A DNA stretch of 64,000 nt from Eledone cirrhosa. Its lineage: Eukaryota. Numbering within the stretch: the stretch's first letter is position 1; every line of letters starts with the position of its first letter. Below are positions 26,051-60,089 of this stretch, piece by piece. Made by a program: the position numbers and the translations under genes. The notes under the pieces are model-generated. The model saw only the letters and a program-made list of their open reading frames with translations. It searched no databases and had not been told where the DNA came from. Where the stretch lies: the NCBI GenBank assembly GCA_964016885.1, contig OZ024745.1, positions 79,360,001 to 79,424,000 on the forward strand, written 5' to 3'.

Positions 26051-26822
26051 CGATGGAGTGCCATCCATCTATATATATGAGTGCATTAGTGGCCTCGACA
26101 CTAATGTGCAAGTGACTGAGCAGTCTATAGATACATGTATCCTTAACACAATTTCTGAACTGAATCAGCATGATACAATATGTGACAAAGCTGCACCTTT
26201 GATTAACAGGTACAATTGATACAGACAAACAGACAATATATATGATGAGCTTCCAGAGTTTTCATCTACCCAATTCATTTATGTCTGAGTTCAAAAGAAA
26301 AGATATCTATATATATAGAGTGGTGAAATTTTCATCACTGCTCTAACAGATGTTAGTAATTAAATGTATAAAAAATATAAATTAAAAACCGTTGCAACTG
26401 GCTGAGTTGATGATGTTAAGCTACTAGTTCAAGGGTTAGCAGTTGATATGTCAACAGCACTGCATTGTGAATATGGCCATAGCGCTGTCCATTTTGCTGT
26501 AAACAGTAACCTGCAATGGCTCAGGGGTATCCATATTGGGGGTGGGTAGTGGGAGGCATCCAACAAAAGTATCACAGAATCTTCTATTCAATAGAGTTAC
26601 TGAGCATAGATTTCTCAAGTGCCCATCAAAAATCTTCTCCCAGGTCAAAATGCCTCTAAAACTCGAGTTTTAGAGGCATACAATCAAGGAGCTCGCCCTG
26701 TGCATCACCAAACCTCTGCATGCATAGGTAATTATAGCTGATGGAAACAGGAATGTTATATAATTAAAAACTATTTCCATAGTTTTCAATGCTAAGTTCA
26801 AATCATACTAGAGGTATAGCAT

Positions 26823-27421
26823 TGTAACGACGTGGTTAGTCAGTCTGGTTACTACTTCTGATCAGATCCGAGAATAGCCCTTAAAAGGATTGTTATCGCA
26901 TACGGTCTGATTGGATCTGAGGGTAGCCCTTAAAAGGACTGTTGTCTCATACGGTAAGGATGAACAGACGAAAGCACAAGTTGAAAGGACGAACAAGGCG
27001 AGAGATGTAGTTTCTGTCAGCTATTTATTTTCATACATGAAGCGACGATACAGAGGTACAAGGTATGTGTGAGTGACAAGCGTGGCAGAGGAGAGGAACA
27101 ACGATACACTAGTTGACCTTTGGCAGAGTCAGCTCGCGTATCGTTGTTCCTCTCCTCTGCCACGCTTGTCACTCACACACGCCTTGTACCTCTGTATCGT
27201 CGCTTCATGTATGAAAATAAATAGCTGACAGAAACTACATCTCTCGCCTTGTTCGTCCTTTCAACTTGTGCTTTCGTCTGTTCATCCTTACCGTATGAGA
27301 CAACAGTCCTTTTAAGGGCTACCCTCAGATCCGATCACACCGTATGCGATAATACCCTTTTAAGGGCTATTCTCGGATCTGATCAGAAGTAGTGACCAGA
27401 CTGACTAACCACGTCGCTACA
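26823..27421. repeat. Palindromic LTR-like terminus A (599 bp; ~285-bp arms, 30-nt centre)
   Basis: TGTAACGACGTGG...CCACGTCGCTACA; about 9 differences between arms by manual comparison; internal 49-bp tandem duplication; AATAAA on both strands. Confidence 0.95.
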
Positions 27422-27423
27422 AT

Positions 27424-27441
27424 TGGTGACCCCAACGTGAT
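27424..27441 (+). promoter_or_regulatory. Primer-binding site, tRNA-Trp (18 nt)
   Basis: TGGTGACCCCAACGTGAT, 17/18 complementary to the tRNA-Trp 3' end, 2 nt after the ...ACA terminus. Confidence 0.9.
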
Positions 27442-28227
27442 GTTTGACACTATGCTTAATAGGTCCATCCTTAAATACCGGGCGAGTGATGTCTGGGTAT
27501 TTCTGGAGAATGCCGTTGTAACACGAAGGCTCTGACTGGCAAATTACAGGGCTCACTGTGGATTGCGTGGTAAATATACCTCTCACAGTGAGGTTTGTGG
27601 TGGTGTCAATAAGCCTCCTGTTCTTCATGTCCACCAGAAAGTTGAAGTGGTGGAGAAAATCGGCTCCTAAGATAGGGGTCGGCAGGTCTGCCATGACGAA
27701 CACCCATTGAAAACGACGCCTCAGGCCTAAATTGAGGGTCAGTGATTTCTCCCCGAAAGTCGGAATTGACGATTGGTTCACTGCCTGCAGAAAGGACGGT
27801 GTTGGATGTCTTTTGCCCGAGACTAGTGAAACAGGAATAACACTAACCTGGGCTCCTGTATCCACAAGGTAACGGAAGCCTGTCGCTTGGTCGTTGATAA
27901 AAAATAGACTTTTCTTCTCAGTACCAGGGGTGAACGTTGTCGCTAGGCCCTGGGTGGTATTCTGGAAAGAGCACGGGTCTTTGCACTTAGATGCCTGTGC
28001 ACCGAATTCTGTGTGATACCAGCAGAGGTTGCCAGACACGATTTTGACTGGGACTTCTGTATCTTCGACTGAAAAGGCCTGGATCGACTGTTGCTGCGTC
28101 GTCGGTGTGTTTGAAAGGTCAGATTCTCTACTTGATTTGAGAGGGCTTTAATTTGACCAGCCCGCTCTCTGATCATAGCCCACAGCTCTGAAATCTCGAC
28201 CTCTGTCGTTGGTTGTGACATGTCCAT
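27442..28227 (-). pseudogene. Gag C-terminus (CHCC zinc box) + aspartic protease, truncated before RT
   Basis: RRRSNSRSR tract, CWYH-x9-C-x3-C, LVDTGAQVSVIP, ILGADFL; one frameshift near 28040; ends at KHSVKHH. Confidence 0.9.
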
Positions 28228-28253
28228 GTTGGTATCTTCTTAGGCTGCTGTCT

Positions 28254-28285
28254 GGTTGCGTGTTCGAATCACGTCGGGGTCACCA
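28254..28285 (-). promoter_or_regulatory. Extended primer-binding site, tRNA-Trp (32 nt)
   Basis: + strand GGTTGCGTGTTCGAATCACGTCGGGGTCACCA matches the mature tRNA-Trp 3' end including CCA; 2 nt from terminus B. Confidence 0.92.
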
Positions 28286-28287
28286 TT

Positions 28288-28684
28288 TATAACGAAGATT
28301 ACGTGTCGCTGGAGATATTATTAAATTTATCGATTCAGAAGGCAATGACAAAAACGACATAATCCGTTGTAACAAAAATTCCCTTTTATTTGTTGTACAA
28401 ATATGGAATCGAAAATAACAAGAGAAGGTTGATCAAGTCTTCACATCGTGTTGGCTGCATGGACGTCTTGATACTGGTTGTTCAGTGAACTCTCTCTGCC
28501 TGTCAGCCAACTGTGCCTCTGGTCCAAGTAGTCCCGCAACTTGTCTTGATCTTCTCTTGTTATTTTCGATTCCATATTTGTACAACAAATAAAAGGGAAT
28601 TTTTGTTATAACGGATTATGTCGTTTTTGTCATTGCCTTCTGAATCGATAAATTTAATATCTCCAGCACGTAATCTTCGTTATA
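28288..28684. repeat. Palindromic LTR-like terminus B (397 bp; ~140-150-bp arms, ~107-nt centre)
   Basis: TATAACGAAGATTACGTG...CACGTAATCTTCGTTATA; arms differ mainly by three short indels; AATAAA on both strands. Confidence 0.95.
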
Positions 28685-29115
28685 GCATGTAGAACATTGG
28701 TTTCCAAAGTGGGGGTCTACTGACAACTAAGGGATATTGAGATTATTTAATTGATGTTGAGATTATTAATGAAGACCTTCCTAAGGGATTTTTGGGTTTA
28801 TTGTTACACTTATGAAATTTATTATATTATTTTCAATAGAGCAATAGAGTCATGATATAAACACCCTCTGGGTAATGTTATTTAGGGTGAGGGGTCTCAC
28901 AGCAGGTGAAGGGTAAGTTTAGGAGTACCTGATGCAATGGTTTGGACTCTGGTGCTTATATACATTACATGAAAATGGAACCTTCAGTAATGTACCAACA
29001 ACTCAATAGTTTTTGTGACAGACCATCGCAACATTTAGTACTTAGTTTCTTTACTTTATATAGATTCATGAAACTGGGTCAAAAAACATGAGTTAGGTAT
29101 GTTTGTTGGTTAGTT

Positions 29116-30003
29116 TCAGTTCTTTTTATTTTCTAAAGTAGGGTTTTTAATCACAAAGTCGGAACCTTCAATTTTGACCTCTTCATAAAGCCAGGGTCGT
29201 TCACAGCGACATTCTGTACCACATTTTTCTGAGCCACATTTCAGACAAGGGAAGTGACAGCCGGGGCAGTCGATATCGAGACAGTCACACATGTCGATGC
29301 CTGTGGATATTAAACATCCAGACTCATCGTACATTTGCCATTCGTTGAATTTCTTCCGCCTCTTTTTTTTCTTCTTCCTCGCTTTGAAACGCACGGTGGA
29401 TTTCATTGTGGGTTTTAAAGTTGTTGATGTGATTGCCTTAGATGACGTGGTCACAGAATGACCGTTTCTACCACCTAATCTAGTGGTTACCGACAGGGTA
29501 TTCTCGCTTTTTACAGTTTCTTCTGCCTTCGTTACCGAAGTAGCATCAGTATTGATTTTATCAGTGGTTTTCACATCTGAGAAAAAACTTTTATTGTTTA
29601 TCGGAAAAGCTTCTTTTTTCCAATCATTTTTTTCTGTGGGTTTAATATCCTTAGTATCTGTCATTTTGCCCACTTCATCCGTTCTCGTTTCATCATCGTT
29701 ACTCTGTTTTTCTGTCGTTTCATTATTCCCGCCGTCAGCACCTTCTATTATATTGCCGTCTTGTTGTCGATATTGACGCCTTGAAGCCCTCGTTACCGCA
29801 ATTTTTCTTCTGGAGTTATCACCTTTATCGTTACCACTCTCATCACCATCATCATCATCATCATCACCCCCAGAATCACTTTCTAATTCTTCGCCGTCTT
29901 TCCTTTCTGAACTCGTATCTGCCGCCTTCATCGTGTAACTTCCGAACTGTTGTTGTTGCAAGTGTAGAACGTAAGTTGTACCCTTGGAGTACCTTATGTT
30001 CAT
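29116..30003 (-). CDS. ARL14EP: ARL14 effector protein-like (ARF7EP_C domain), single coding exon
   Basis: C-terminal YDESG...DMCDCLDIDCPGCHFPCLKCGSEKCGTECRCERPWLYEEVKIEG matches the ARL14EP Cys-rich domain. Basic NLS-like tract; acceptor-like TTTCTGTACAG just before the ATG. Confidence 0.9.
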   Translation of the reverse strand: MNIRYSKGTTYVLHLQQQQFGSYTMKAADTSSERKDGEELESDSGGDDDDDDGDESGNDKGDNSRRKIAVTRASRRQYRQQDGNIIEGADGGNNETTEKQSNDDETRTDEVGKMTDTKDIKPTEKNDWKKEAFPINNKSFFSDVKTTDKINTDATSVTKAEETVKSENTLSVTTRLGGRNGHSVTTSSKAITSTTLKPTMKSTVRFKARKKKKKRRKKFNEWQMYDESGCLISTGIDMCDCLDIDCPGCHFPCLKCGSEKCGTECRCERPWLYEEVKIEGSDFVIKNPTLENKKN

Positions 30004-31639
30004 TACTGTACAGAAATACTTAATAAATGTTAACCATTACAAATATCTTATTTTTCAACACTGAGAGAAGACTTCCAAACGATGTTTCAAAACATGTGCT
30101 ATTGTATTTATAATATTGTAAATAATCGCTTAATGCGTATTAATTGTAGTCAGTTTTCTTCAATTTTTTTTTAATGCTGTTGTTCCTTAAACTTGATTTG
30201 AGATTGTTTTTCGTTGCATTTGTATATACTGACAATAAAATGAATCGAACTGAATTATAAAATAACTTCAGTGTGCGTAGATGAAAGACGGAAATAATGA
30301 AACAGAAAGTATCAGTTTTAACTTTACAAGTTCAAAGTTTTTCTGAAAACATCGTCAACGGGTGGAACGTGGTAAATTAAAATAACGATTTCATCATCAA
30401 AGAAAAATATATAAACAACTTACAACTATCATTCCATAATGAAATGGTTAAAACGTCTCATTGGGTAGAACGTAGATGTAAATAATATATGTTTATATAT
30501 ATGTATGTGTAAGTATATTCCTCACGGATGCAATATCAAGTCCAATGTTTTCAACCAGGATTTCTTTTTTTTTTTTACTAATGTTTATGTAACTCTCCTC
30601 AGCATGGCGAAATGAGGTAAATTACTCCACACTCCCGTAGTTGTTGCTGTTGTGTAGCTCTTGGCTATCCTTTATTAAAACAGATCCAATGACATGTAGG
30701 TTGGTTAAACGACAAAATGCTGTCTACATCCTGTATAGAGGCTCGTTCGTTGTGTTCTGAGGATGTCGTTGTTTACACACAAGTCAGCCTTGATTGGACT
30801 ACGGACAAATGCCTCAAGTAGTAAAAGATAAATAAAATCTACTTTTAGTTTTTAATAGCTTACATTATGAAAGATAATTTACGCGATAAAGCATCGATAT
30901 TTCAAATTCTGTTTTATTTTTTACTCTACGGGTTTTTTGCCATATGGAGTTTTTGTCATGGACCCGCCCTGATCGAGCAGGCCAATGGTGAAAGGCCGTC
31001 CAGTCGTGACCAACTGTAGTTTTTGTAGTATTTAGGATTGCATGTAATGTATCGTTTCCGTATTTAAGACGACAGAGTGTGGTTTGAAGATTTGGTAGTT
31101 ATTTCTAGTAGGTCGAGTGTGATTGAATATGTAATGACAGGGATTCTGTGGATTAGAGTATACAGCAACACTATACAACATACATTGGTGTTGATGGAGC
31201 GCCCGTGGATGTTCTTCGAATGTTTGTACTTCATTTGATTTTTTTGTGTTTGTTTTTTCCTTCTACGTCTTCTATGTAGGGTGTGAATGTTGTAGGTATT
31301 TTTAATATCGTAGTAGGTCCACTGACTCCACAGGTCTTCATCGGTTGTCTTGTCGCCTGAATACTGGTCGCTTCGCTCACCCTACTGAGTTAAACCTAAT
31401 TATCAAGCGGGCCCTGGCTCGTGTCAATAGCCATCAATTCTGGAGACAGCTATTGACATGGGGAGAGATCAGCTGGCCTTACTCTTTGCCCTATTTCATT
31501 TGGGACGCCACAGTCAATGAAGCTTGCTCCTTGCCACATCCTAGATGGTGCGTTAAAGTCAGAGGGTCACTGGATCCGTAGCAGAATGGAACACAATTTT
31601 AAAATACCAGTAATTATTAGCAAACTATTTTTTCCAGCT

Positions 31640-39199: not shown

Positions 39200-42100
39200 A
39201 GGTTTGCCCTGTCTGTCTATGATGTAATAAATAAGATGCCAGTGTTTGGATCTAGGATGCATGCATGATGTCTTACATTTGTTCTTTTGCTTAAACAGGG
39301 TGTTGATGATTAGGTCACACTCTGCACACAGAGAAAGAAACCTGATTCCATTATTGTTAGTTTTCCACCTTCACCAGGTTCCCTATCACTTGTTCCCAGG
39401 TTTTCTGGTTCCTCTCTACTCTTGCATTAAATTTAAACAAGGAGATCCCTCTCTAATTGGAACAATCTCTCCTTTTGAAAATTGGGATTATCACTCCTGA
39501 TTGCCATTGCTTAGGTGCATTTCCAGAGATCCAGAGATCCAGGCTGCCTGGCTCACAAAAGTCAGCCAGAGAATACTTTCTCTATTTAAGGTTTTTAACA
39601 TCTTGGGCTGGATTTCATCTTCCCCAGTGGCCTTGCCACATTTGAGCTCTTTAACAGCTTGTAGCTGGAGGCATTTGGACTTACCTTGCGTCTCTCTGGT
39701 CCACGTGGGGTACTTTCTGGTTGCGTCTGTCTTCACACGTCCGTCACCTCGCAGGGCATATAGCTAAGAGGCCTCTGTTGACTGCCTGGTCCCTCGAGTC
39801 ACCCCTGTCCTCCTGCTTCCGGTCAGGCGTCCCCCAACTTCTGGCAATGCCCCCCCCCCCCCACTGATCTCAAGGATCAATCCCTTCCCCCATCACACTG
39901 CTCAATCTCAAAATCCGCCAAAACCTCGGTGGCGGCGGCTCTGTTGCGATCTCCGCACTGTTGGGGCGGCTCTTTCATTTTCCTCTTCCTCGGAGTCCGT
40001 CACCACAACGACTCTACGGACGTCCAAGACACGTTGTTTTGGGAATTTACGTTGGTTACCATTCCCTTTCCCCATTGAGATGTGCAACGTGCGTTCGGGG
40101 GCTTGACCCATACCTCTTCGCCCACTTGTACGAATGCGCTCTCTCTCCACCGGCTGCTGTGGTACCGTGCACGGGTGTCGCCATTCATATCTATATATTG
40201 CCCGGTGCGGCACCGACTCCTCGGTCTGTCCACCTGCGGAGACGTGTTGTAACAGAACACTGCCTCCATTGGCGAAATGTGTCTCCTTTCCGTCATGGCC
40301 TTGATCGTGAGATGATGTCTTTCCACGATTCCATTTCCACTCAGCCTGTATGCCGCTCTGAAGAAGCGGTTCACCTTCCACTTGTCAAGCATTTCCCTCA
40401 GCACCTCCGAGCGAAATGCCGTGCTATTGTCCATCAGCAGTTCATCCACAGGGCCCCGTTCCAAGTATATCTCTCTTAGCGTCCGCACGATTTCCTCCGC
40501 AGTCCCTGTCCACAATCGACCATTGAAAGAAAAAGGTGAACTAAAGGGCTGCCGTGCCGGGAGTAAGAATGCCGAAAGATGGGAAATTTCATTAAACGCT
40601 GAAATATCTTGTAGCCGGAGGCATTCGGAATTACCTTGCGTCTCTCTGGTCCACGTGGGGTACTTTCCGCTCACGTCTGTCTTCACACGTCCGCCACCTC
40701 GTAGGGCGTATAGCTAAGAGGCCTCTGTTGACTGCCTGGTCGCTCGAGTCACCCCTCGTCCTCCTGCTTCCGGCCAGGCGTCCCCCAACTTCCGGCAATG
40801 CCACTCCCACGGCAGCTATACACACCCCCTCTATCTTGCGGCAGCTCTACACCCCCCTCTTTCGCAGCAGCCCCACACAGCTCTTGTGACTTCAGCTTCT
40901 GAGAGATTAGTCACTGCTCCCACATGCACCTTGTGTACATCACAAGATGCTGTTGTGATTGGGTTTAGGAGATCAGCAAAGTACTCTCTCTGAAGAGAGA
41001 ACCCCAGACAAATTCCTGATAGGTATGGAGGTGGACGTCTTATTACGAAGTTGGCAGTTGGTCTGCCAGAACACTTTATTTGCTGATCTGAAGTGATTTC
41101 AGCTTAACCTTAAAGTCCTCCCACATCTTAACTTTGGATGCCTTTACTGTCTCTACAGTGATTTTTTGTGCCTGCTTGTACTGGAAATGCAAGAAGGAGG
41201 ACTTATTTCCAAACCAAGCTTTGGAGGCCTTTTTCTTTGCTTGGATAGTATCTTTGACCTCTTCATTGAACCATGGGGTCCTCTTGCTATCTGGTGCCAC
41301 AGCATTTAACAGCTGAAACAAATTGTTGAGCTGAACAATCTCCATTCTGTCTCAATGTCTCAGTTTGCTCAGTGAATTCTCTGAATTTGGATGCAATAGT
41401 ATTTGCATAACTGATCCTGACTTCCTTATCCATCAACACTTTTCACTTTATCCTGCAGGTTGCCCTGGACCTGCCAGTTTTGAGGGCTTCTGTGGATTTA
41501 GGTAGTCTCAAGCTGCTGATAAGTAGATGGTGATCAGTCGACAGCTCAACCCCTCTCTTAAAACGAACATCCAGTACAGAATCAAAGAGATCAGAAATAA
41601 TAACAAAATCAATTATTGATCTCTGGCCCTGATTCCCCTTATACCATATATATTTATGGATGTCTCTGTGCTGGAAGATGTTCATAACAGAGAGTCCATT
41701 GCTAGAAAAGAATGCTAATAAGGCCTCTCCATTCGTATTTAGATCAGGGTCGCTGTTCCTTCAAATCACCTTTTTCCATGTCAGGTGGTCAGTGCCAACA
41801 TGTGCATTGAAGTCTCCCATCAGGATATATGACTCGGTCTTTATATCTAACACTGCATTGACTTCATCAAAGAAGAATCTGTATTTGGACTCTTTGTTTG
41901 GTGCATAAACTTGCAGCACCCACAGAGATCTATTTTGCAGCCTAAGCTTCAAGAGGCAAATCCTCCCTCCTAACGGAATCCAGTCCATAACAAATTCTGA
42001 CAGCCCGGGGTTTGTGAGTATACCCACTCCCACCTGTGCAGTAATTTCTGGCATCAGACCTGAATAGTGGAGTTTCCATCCTCCATTCATAGAGCCATGG

Positions 42101-58992: not shown

Positions 58993-59158
58993 TACATATA
59001 TGAGAGAGAGAGAGATAGAGAGAATGTGTGTGTATGTGTAATTGTGGATAAGATCTTGAAGATGAATGTGGGATTAGATATATTGAAATGCAGCATAGAA
59101 TATTGAAACATTGGGAATTTTGCACTTACTATTTTATCTTTATTTGTCTAATATAGGA

Positions 59159-59839
59159 ATGGAACTTGGATTTATTTACCAAGCCATGTACATGGTTCTT
59201 ACTCTCTTTATTGGGATGGTCATTGCACGGCTCTACCGAAGACATCGATACAAACATTACGAAGTACGAGTACGTGATGTGAGCAAAGGTCATCGCTGGA
59301 TGATGGTCAGCATGTTTACCAACCCAACCTACTGTGTAGTAAGCCAGGACAGAATTAGTGATGGTGCACAGTGTCATTCATGTAGCATCTGTGTTGATGA
59401 TGCCAACATGAAGGAAGCCAATCAGAAAATCCCTTGCAAGCCCCTTTCAGTAACAGGAATGTTCACGCCACACCACTGGGGGCATGGCAACTTGCCCTTG
59501 TCTAGTATCTGTTACATTTGTAGGAAACCTTGCATCAATCAGATGCAACTCTCTGACTATGTCTGCTGTTGGTGTCAGCGCTGTGTCCACAGTGAATGTT
59601 TGCAGAACTGTGAAAATGAATGTGATCTTGGTCCGTACAAATCAGTGATTGTACCCCCACACTGTGTAACCCTTAAGTGGGTTGGCCTGAAAGGTAGACA
59701 GCACCTTATTGTGGAATCAGTCAGGAAACCAAATATTGCAAATTGGAGTCCTCTTATTGTAATAGCTAACCTAAGGAGTTGTAACAATGATACAGAGAGT
59801 GCACTGCAAGCATTTCGTTCCTATCTGAATCCTGCACAG
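59159..59839 (+). CDS. DGKE: Diacylglycerol kinase epsilon-like, first coding exon (TM helix, two C1 domains, start of catalytic domain)
   Basis: N-terminal hydrophobic helix; H.W...F..PTYC; HHWGHGNLP..CCWCQRCVH..C; CDLG; WSPLIVIAN; LNPAQ|GTAAGA. Confidence 0.9.
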
Positions 59840-60089
59840 GTAAGAAAATCTCTCATTTATTCCTTTAATTTCTGATATTAGCTTCAGTACAATATATCTG
59901 TTTCACTCTGGCATGTAATTTGTTGATCTCTGCTTATGATCTCTATGGTTGAGTTACCTCTAGATATAAAGGGATACAACTTGATGTATTGTTTTACTCC
60001 AATATAGGCACACATATGTGTGTGCATATTTACTACCAGAATTAAACTAAAGCCAACTACGAACTCAAGCAAATGTAAACCATACACCT

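Follow-up and report, generated by a model that had tools for sequence, protein, structure and literature searches.

How does an insertion come to carry two unrelated, inverted LTR-like ends and two tRNA-Trp primer binding sites (PBSs) that face each other? The question is raised by an insert of ~1.9 kb in Eledone cirrhosa contig OZ024745.1, which lies at 26823..28684 of the window (the whole 64,000-nucleotide stretch analysed, positions 79,360,001 to 79,424,000 of the contig; all coordinates below are those of the window). A preliminary description of this DNA offered two answers: a chimeric cDNA made from two co-packaged families with palindromic LTRs, or a non-autonomous class in which fold-back ends permit tRNA priming from both sides. 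We find that the insert is very probably a chimeric dead-end cDNA, integrated once, whose two U5 ends come from different families, A and B.

Anatomy of the insert

The coordinates of the preliminary description all hold, and the features are collected in Table 1. As had been described, palindrome A (26823-27421, 599 bp; identical to its reverse complement in 572 of 601 columns) is followed by 2 nt and a tRNA-Trp PBS on the plus strand. The other end likewise consists of a minus-strand tRNA-Trp PBS, 2 nt and an unrelated 397-bp unit B (28288-28684), but B is not the full palindrome it was taken for, with arms of ~134 bp that enclose a loop of ~123 nt. Comparison of A with B by blastn gives no significant match (best E=1.2). 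The gag-CHCC/protease remnant reported between them is confirmed by a minus-strand ORF with a CX2HX9CX3C box and a retroviral aspartyl protease domain (PF00077, E=4e-6). No purine tract adjoins either end of the insert, in agreement with the earlier remark that a polypurine tract (PPT) is missing beside both termini. In place of the two direct, near-identical U3-R-U5 LTRs and the one PBS and one PPT of a canonical LTR retrotransposon, the unit has inverted ends and two PBSs, and it contains no U3 promoter, PPT, RT or integrase. Positions on the parent LTRs are given on rulers, each of which is a single natural copy (L095 for family A, L099 for family B).

Table 1 Features of the insert and its target site.
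Feature	Position	Strand	Remarks
Left TSD GCAT	26819..26822	+	4-bp TSD rule of families A and B
Palindrome A, outer (short) arm	26823..27117	-	Inverted copy of family-A U5 with most of R; ruler L095 487->193
Palindrome A, inner (long) arm	27107..27421	+	Family-A R-U5 in sense orientation; ruler 172->487; no U3
2-nt spacer AT	27422..27423	+	As in family-A parents
PBS1	27424..27441	+	Complementary over 18 nt to the 3' end of tRNA-Trp, apart from one G-to-A change
Family-A internal piece	27437..28198	-	Gag end, CHCC, protease, linker toward RT
Protease of internal piece	27644-27883		Within minus-strand family-A piece
CHCC box of internal piece	27971-28024		Within minus-strand gag end
Family-A leader/start of gag	28193..28267	-	Ruler 583-1142 absent
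PBS2 region	28257..28285	-	Family-A extended tRNA-Trp match, 29 nt; family-A leader/family-B U5 chimeric junction
PBS2 proper (18 nt)	28268-28285	-
2-nt spacer (AA in element sense)	28286..28287	-	As in family-B parents
B, inner (long) arm	28288..28551	-	Family-B R-U5; ruler L099 115->425; no U3
B, outer (short) arm	28552..28684	+	Ruler 287->425; ends with family-B U5 terminus TTATA
Right TSD GCAT	28685..28688	+

Elsewhere in the window, a host ORF with an ARF7EP_C domain (29116-30036, minus strand; PF14949, E=4e-26) ends ~430 bp from the insert. AATAAA motifs at 28823 and 28802 precede the insert, so that no effect on this gene is evident. Inspection by eye also picked out a second LTR-element remnant with an integrase-like ORF (40000-40713, minus strand), RT-like LINE fragments near 11.6-13.1, 23.2, 34.9-36.5, 41.8, 46.3, 60.1 and 63.1 kb, and a C1-domain/lipid-kinase-like exon at 59099-59875.

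The parents are ordinary gypsy elements

Families A and B both consist of ordinary gypsy elements of the CHCC/tRNA-Trp type. Both palindromes are multicopy, with 640 first-look candidates for A and 70 for B, and among the best 40 scored in each case all other copies match a single arm, beyond which their sequence differs. All seven full-length A copies fetched have direct LTRs of ~487 bp (TG..CA), one PBS and a PPT-like purine-rich tract; four of them are flanked by distinct 4-bp target site duplications (TSDs; GATC, AGGT, GCTT and CATG) and three lie in TA repeats. Among the 6 family-A solo-type LTRs for which both ends could be called, 4 are flanked by a 4-bp TSD. In the intact B copy, L099, the LTRs measure 425 bp and terminate in TTATA; this copy carries one PBS and a PPT and is flanked by the TSD ACAG. 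Parent elements are ~5.3-5.9 kb long and encode PR-RT-RNaseH-integrase in gypsy order, with a CHCC box in 7 of the 12 parent regions scanned (4 A, 3 B) and a pol protein identity between the two families of 56% over 564 aa. Both PBSs match host tRNA-Trp(CCA) genes: a PBS2-derived pattern matches 12 places in the genome, and ARAGORN calls tRNA-Trp in all 10 loci scanned. The hallmarks of CsRn1-type elements that had been named for this locus (a tRNA-Trp PBS, a CHCC gag box and a 4-bp TSD) are all present in the parent families.

The preliminary description had taken the parents to be families with palindromic LTRs, and had raised the question of a second PBS at the 3' end of full-length copies. 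The seven A copies and L099 have neither feature, each carrying ordinary direct LTRs with one PBS and a PPT. Moreover, the R-U5 palindrome of the window is absent from all 28 other A LTR loci and all 28 other B LTR loci drawn from the best-40-scored searches, and these loci continue into U3. Naturally palindromic LTRs in the two parents are thus refuted for the sampled copies; nothing was found in their favour, and we regard their probability as negligible.

Three side observations concern the parents and their primer. A gag-deleted family-A subfamily, in which ruler 583-1142 is missing, was found at 4 of 10 5'-LTR loci and in the window, and would need Gag in trans. The LTRs of family B, and of a further family C, run TG...TA and not TG...CA, yet have clean 4-bp TSDs. 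A tRNA-Trp(CCA) gene cluster with one tRNA-Leu lies at G000:C4:277.40-277.44 Mb (L181-L187).

One target site and a probably valid assembly

GCAT abuts both outer ends of the insert, as first reported, although the boundary was at that time ambiguous. A scan of 19 apparent solo B loci yielded 15 LTRs for which both ends could be called, and in 11 of them a 4-bp TSD directly follows the terminal ..TTATA. This places the right terminus of the insert at 28684 and makes the TSD GCAT. The alternative of an 8-bp TSD was rejected, its TATA belonging to the B terminus. A TSD of the family length at both exact family termini is the mark of a single integrase event and supports the proposal that the insert was integrated as one molecule. 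No empty-site joint with a single GCAT was seen in 4 runs, of which the other-species run was without depth over most of the flanks.

An assembly artefact is unlikely, because the arms have diverged and three junctions are bridged by contigs from public runs. The arms of palindrome A differ by 9 substitutions and 2 gaps (3.2%), within the range of parent LTR pairs (2.9-5.2%, n=7), and those of B by 1 substitution and 2 gaps in 134 bp. The flank/A junction is bridged by contigs of runs X2 and X3, the chimeric junction at PBS2 by a contig of X1 (record 7) with no differences, and the B/flank junction by contigs of X1, X2 and X3; these runs may derive from the assembled sample. Palindromes are artefact-prone, and no contig among the matches listed bridges the PBS1/pol junction or spans the whole element. 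Nonetheless, the A-arm divergence, the TSD and the three bridged junctions make an assembly or library fold-back artefact extremely improbable. At 26827 a contig of run X3 has G and the assembly A; G is the letter of the partner arm, and the difference is possibly an allele or an arm-to-arm conversion.

Each end is a predicted inverted R-U5

At each end of the insert, only the predicted R-U5 half of a parent LTR is present, as an inverted duplication. Palindrome A runs through ruler 487->193 inverted, then 172->487 and into its PBS, such that the left terminus of the insert is the U5 end of the outer arm. B carries ruler 115-425 beside its PBS and repeats 287-425 outside. The family-A LTR has a TATA box at 145 and an Inr-like A at 176; the inner arm of A starts ~27-31 nt downstream of this TATA box, and the turn-back lies at ruler 172-176. 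In the family-B LTR, two CCAAT boxes (82 and 96) precede an Inr-like A (111), and B turns back at ruler 115, 4 nt after that A. With the transcription starts of both families taken from motif predictions, the arms are predicted to equal R-U5 and to turn back at those starts.

The break in B joins breaks at ruler 107-118 in three other B loci; 5 of 20 B breakpoints fall in this interval. The corresponding p value is 2e-4 for a fixed window that was chosen partly post hoc, 0.025 after scan correction and 0.17 with one break per locus. The clustering of B breakpoints is accordingly modest.

Further information comes from the letters of the arms. Both A arms carry one letter that is seen in just 1 of 56 family copies, and the differences between the arms are mostly private, which shows that the arms derive from one template lineage; the arm alleles do not separate an intramolecular from an intermolecular route. 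In DNA folding of B, the extreme 3' end of the minus strand pairs with a site of 7 bp that lies 4 nt from the junction with the outer arm, and two rare changes in the window's B copy make the 7-bp pairing at the fold point perfect. This modelled pairing suggests that the two sites at the fold point were once paired, and it favours none of the routes discussed below over the others.

Internal piece and PBS junctions

The internal 0.86 kb belongs to family A, being 91-95% identical to other A copies, and specifically to the gag-deleted subfamily. It meets B U5 exactly at PBS2, and the switch between families lies within the PBS. PBS2 matches tRNA-Trp over 29 nt; the tRNA match of PBS1 stops at 18 nt, as it does in an independent family-C product (L100, see below). 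The last 8 nt of PBS1 overlap antisense family-A pol by microhomology, or 7 of 8 with the tRNA base restored. A stop at m1A58 of the tRNA sets an 18-nt limit to a tRNA-copied PBS, and this length is found both at PBS1 and in L100. The end of PBS1 is consistent with an m1A58 stop without proving it, as it overlaps the microhomology.

These junctions also bear on a chromosomal origin, in which one A and one B insertion occurred independently and were later brought together by deletion and fold-back DNA repair. Nested insertions, and deletions that postdate insertion, are frequent among the fetched loci, and fold-back repair can produce palindromes. Such a history would, however, require identical 4-mers to flank the insert by chance (~0.005), as well as the loss of both U3s exactly at the predicted starts, a family switch within the PBS and an 18-nt PBS limit, three features at which chromosomal repair would not aim. 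We consider it very unlikely.

Search for sister copies

No second A...B unit was found by four tests based on exact patterns or on the best 40 candidates, a scope in which old diverged sisters could be missed. A pattern search places the A fold-back centre at 1 locus, and all 397 bp of B are matched only by the window (best 40 of 70 candidates). The B-U5/PBS/A-leader pattern occurs at 2 places, namely the window and an unrelated C-like LTR. A pattern of A U5, PBS and the non-native base gave 4 matches, comprising the window, two mapped normal elements (L085 and L123) and a fourth that coincides with a normal internal match of family A and is apparently a normal copy. Short head-to-head PBS motifs are not enriched (25 matches, compared with 32 for a control pattern), and 1 of the 25 is visibly a PBS/PBS junction.

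A non-autonomous LTR family of the TRIM/LARD-like kind is defined by multiple copies of one unit at different sites, and neither the exact patterns nor the best 40 candidates yielded such copies. The earlier suggestion to look for A...B units with different TSDs led to none in this scope. A non-autonomous, self-propagating class whose members have fold-back ends and a pair of PBSs facing inwards would account for the symmetric structure, for two integrase-competent ends and for the clean TSD; it is highly improbable given the missing sisters in the four tests, the absence of U3 from both ends and the head-to-head motif counts. Priming from both sides as the habit of a class thus finds no support in an A fold-back centre at 1 locus and a full-length B confined, among the best 40 candidates scored, to the window.

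Of the other initial proposal, the chimera of two families is supported and the palindromic-LTR parents are not. A unique junction together with ordinary PBS+PPT parents, the outcome that the preliminary description would have read as a one-off chimera, is what we observe. The insert is most likely a one-off copying accident, in a setting where family B leaves similar inverted products fairly often.

Other inverted integrants and inter-family joins

Inverted LTR junctions are present in 8 of the 45 distinct family-B insertions mapped, counted after merging paired LTRs and with the window included, and in 5 of the 32 family-B insertions from the search with an ordinary B LTR. They occur in 0 of 57 other family-A loci, some of which are two ends of one element. 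Four family-B integrants have exact 4-bp TSDs at their outer ends (chance ~0.005 each): L101 (CCTT), L125 (AGCT) and L167 (GGTC) end in U3/U3, and L166 (CAGT) ends in U5/U3. PBS fold-back junctions were seen in L101 and L118. In L097 and L098, antisense R-U5 runs into plus-sense internal sequence, and both look like cross-priming products. No TSD was located at L118, L097 or L098, which are counted as inverted. Left out of the counts were L120 (family A, where the LTR breaks off at ruler 184 and 3' internal sequence follows) and the ambiguous L119 (family B, with an internal inversion), since later deletion or inversion explains them equally well.

Family C provides a further inverted product at L100:2391-3384, where an inverted full LTR is followed by a ~115-nt antisense PPT-side spacer, an LTR and an 18-nt PBS, after which the sequence jumps back to the U3 end; the TSD AGTT is exact. 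L100 fits simple fold-back priming with natural ends.

Several other features of these families were recorded. Family C gave 1830 first-look candidates and includes small non-autonomous elements, seen as several pairs of direct LTRs separated by only 1.5-1.8 kb. Two more family-C loci were read: L193 lies in a TA repeat and has once more the inverted U3/U3 form, and L194 has a C-like LTR, ~26 nt of tRNA-Trp complement and then a second partial PBS, an arrangement that is possibly a read-through along the tRNA. At L122:4229-9252, an LTR of a family D is joined at the PBS to a family-A internal region, and family-D pieces abut B sequence in L097, a further inter-family chimera.

A proposed mechanism for the chimeric cDNA

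We propose that the insert arose by aberrant reverse transcription when RNAs, or early cDNAs, from two gypsy families primed by tRNA-Trp co-occurred. Co-packaging of A and B is an assumption of this account, and their pol is only 56% identical in protein. First, tRNA-Trp would prime minus-strand strong-stop DNA (R-U5) on A and B RNA. To judge from the anatomy of the ends, the strong-stop DNA would then skip its transfer to the RNA 3' end, giving for each family an inverted R-U5 duplex that ends in an 18-nt PBS copied from the tRNA. The junction observed at PBS1 would mark the third step, in which the 3' end of the A-side PBS misprimes on family-A pol RNA by microhomology and copying proceeds backwards through protease, gag and leader to the PBS. 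There the B-side PBS would anneal, much as in normal second strand transfer, to leave the junction observed at PBS2 and a duplex with an A U5 end on one side and a B U5 end on the other. Finally, both ends were joined to one target site, as the TSD shows, by what would be a gypsy integrase.

Three routes to the inverted duplexes were weighed. Simple self-priming with strand displacement would put the long arm outside, with the loop antisense on the strand that ends in the PBS. Both ends of the window's insert have the reverse arrangement, with the long arm inside and the TSS-proximal loop in sense orientation on the strand that enters the PBS; L100 has the expected orientation, with the long arm outside. 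The reversed loops point to cross-priming between strong-stop DNAs or to integrase nicking of hairpin-capped DNA.

In route (a), a stalled strong-stop DNA would prime on the 3' end of a second, complete one, a reading that we hold tentatively, at somewhat below an even chance. RTs have been described to clamp 3' ends with a 2-nt overlap in vitro (PMC3035444), an activity that offers a precedent. Against this route, it needs two A and two B templates, four in all; a paper on the Ty3 capsid assumes two genomes per particle (PMC6525542). In route (b), a dumbbell with closed self-primed hairpins at both ends would be nicked by integrase at U5/PBS and joined to one target, and host replication or repair would open the hairpins, as in replicative (cointegrate-type) transposition. 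The reversed loops at both ends would follow from this route, for which a single template of each family is enough, but we find it doubtful. A precedent is the cleavage by integrase of an internal palindromic 2-LTR junction (PMC1905944), shown there for U5-U3 and not for nicking at U5/PBS. Under either route the B junction falls 3-4 nt short of expectation, and the A junction zone has three mismatches from both candidate sources. Route (c), simple self-priming followed by later flips of the loops, is unlikely.

Implications

Strong-stop mispriming products seem here to have been integrated and inherited, beyond the dead ends seen in vitro. Two U5 ends from families 56% alike in pol imply shared particles or compartments and a tolerant integrase. 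With ~1/6 of sampled family-B insertions inverted, the genome preserves errors of strand transfer, and RNA ends as well as error rates could be deduced from this natural record. Such inserts could also pass for palindromic-LTR families or MITEs. If route (b) is true, a gypsy integrase would be able to act on internal, hairpin-capped LTR ends of two families, and family B would be a readable fossil series of hairpin-capped intermediates.

Comparison with known systems

CsRn1-like Ty3/gypsy elements such as PwRn1 and AgCR are described with a tRNA-Trp PBS, a CHCC box and a 4-bp TSD (PMC2582038), and the CsRN1 clade occurs in cephalopods (PMC6238403). The parent families share the PBS, the CX2HX9CX3C box and the TSD length with those elements, along with a length of ~5.3-5.9 kb and the PR-RT-RH-IN order (PMC2582038). 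This likeness is one of hallmarks, and the LTRs of family B end in TA, not CA. The insert itself departs from the CsRn1-like plan in its two different ends and in having no U3, PPT or RT/IN.

The nearest parallels to its ends and junctions come from errors of reverse transcription. In HIV-1, strong-stop DNA can self-prime to give an R-U5 hairpin in place of transfer (PMC6088434, section 5.1), a product described there as an in vitro dead end that is undetected in endogenous reactions. The inverted R-U5 ends of the insert resemble such a hairpin, but the insert is integrated in the germ line and its loop orientation is reversed relative to simple self-priming. Defective HIV-1 proviruses that arise from aberrant first or second strand transfer at short homology also integrate (PMC12657518), and their junctions at the R 5' end and at the PBS/tRNA copy resemble those found here. 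Those defects are deletions within one virus, and the main text of that report does not use the word 'inversion'; the insert has inverted ends from two families. Complex LTR insertions attributed to template switching in Triticeae (PMC1950507) share the fusion of two parents and the one flanking TSD, but they carry three LTRs in the same orientation, belong to one family and end in U3 and U5. In the literature covered, a scope that mostly leaves out subscription journals and older retrovirology, we found no description of a U5/U5 integrant from two families. The insert is best read as an integrated strand-transfer error of a known kind, unusual in having two U5 ends from two families.
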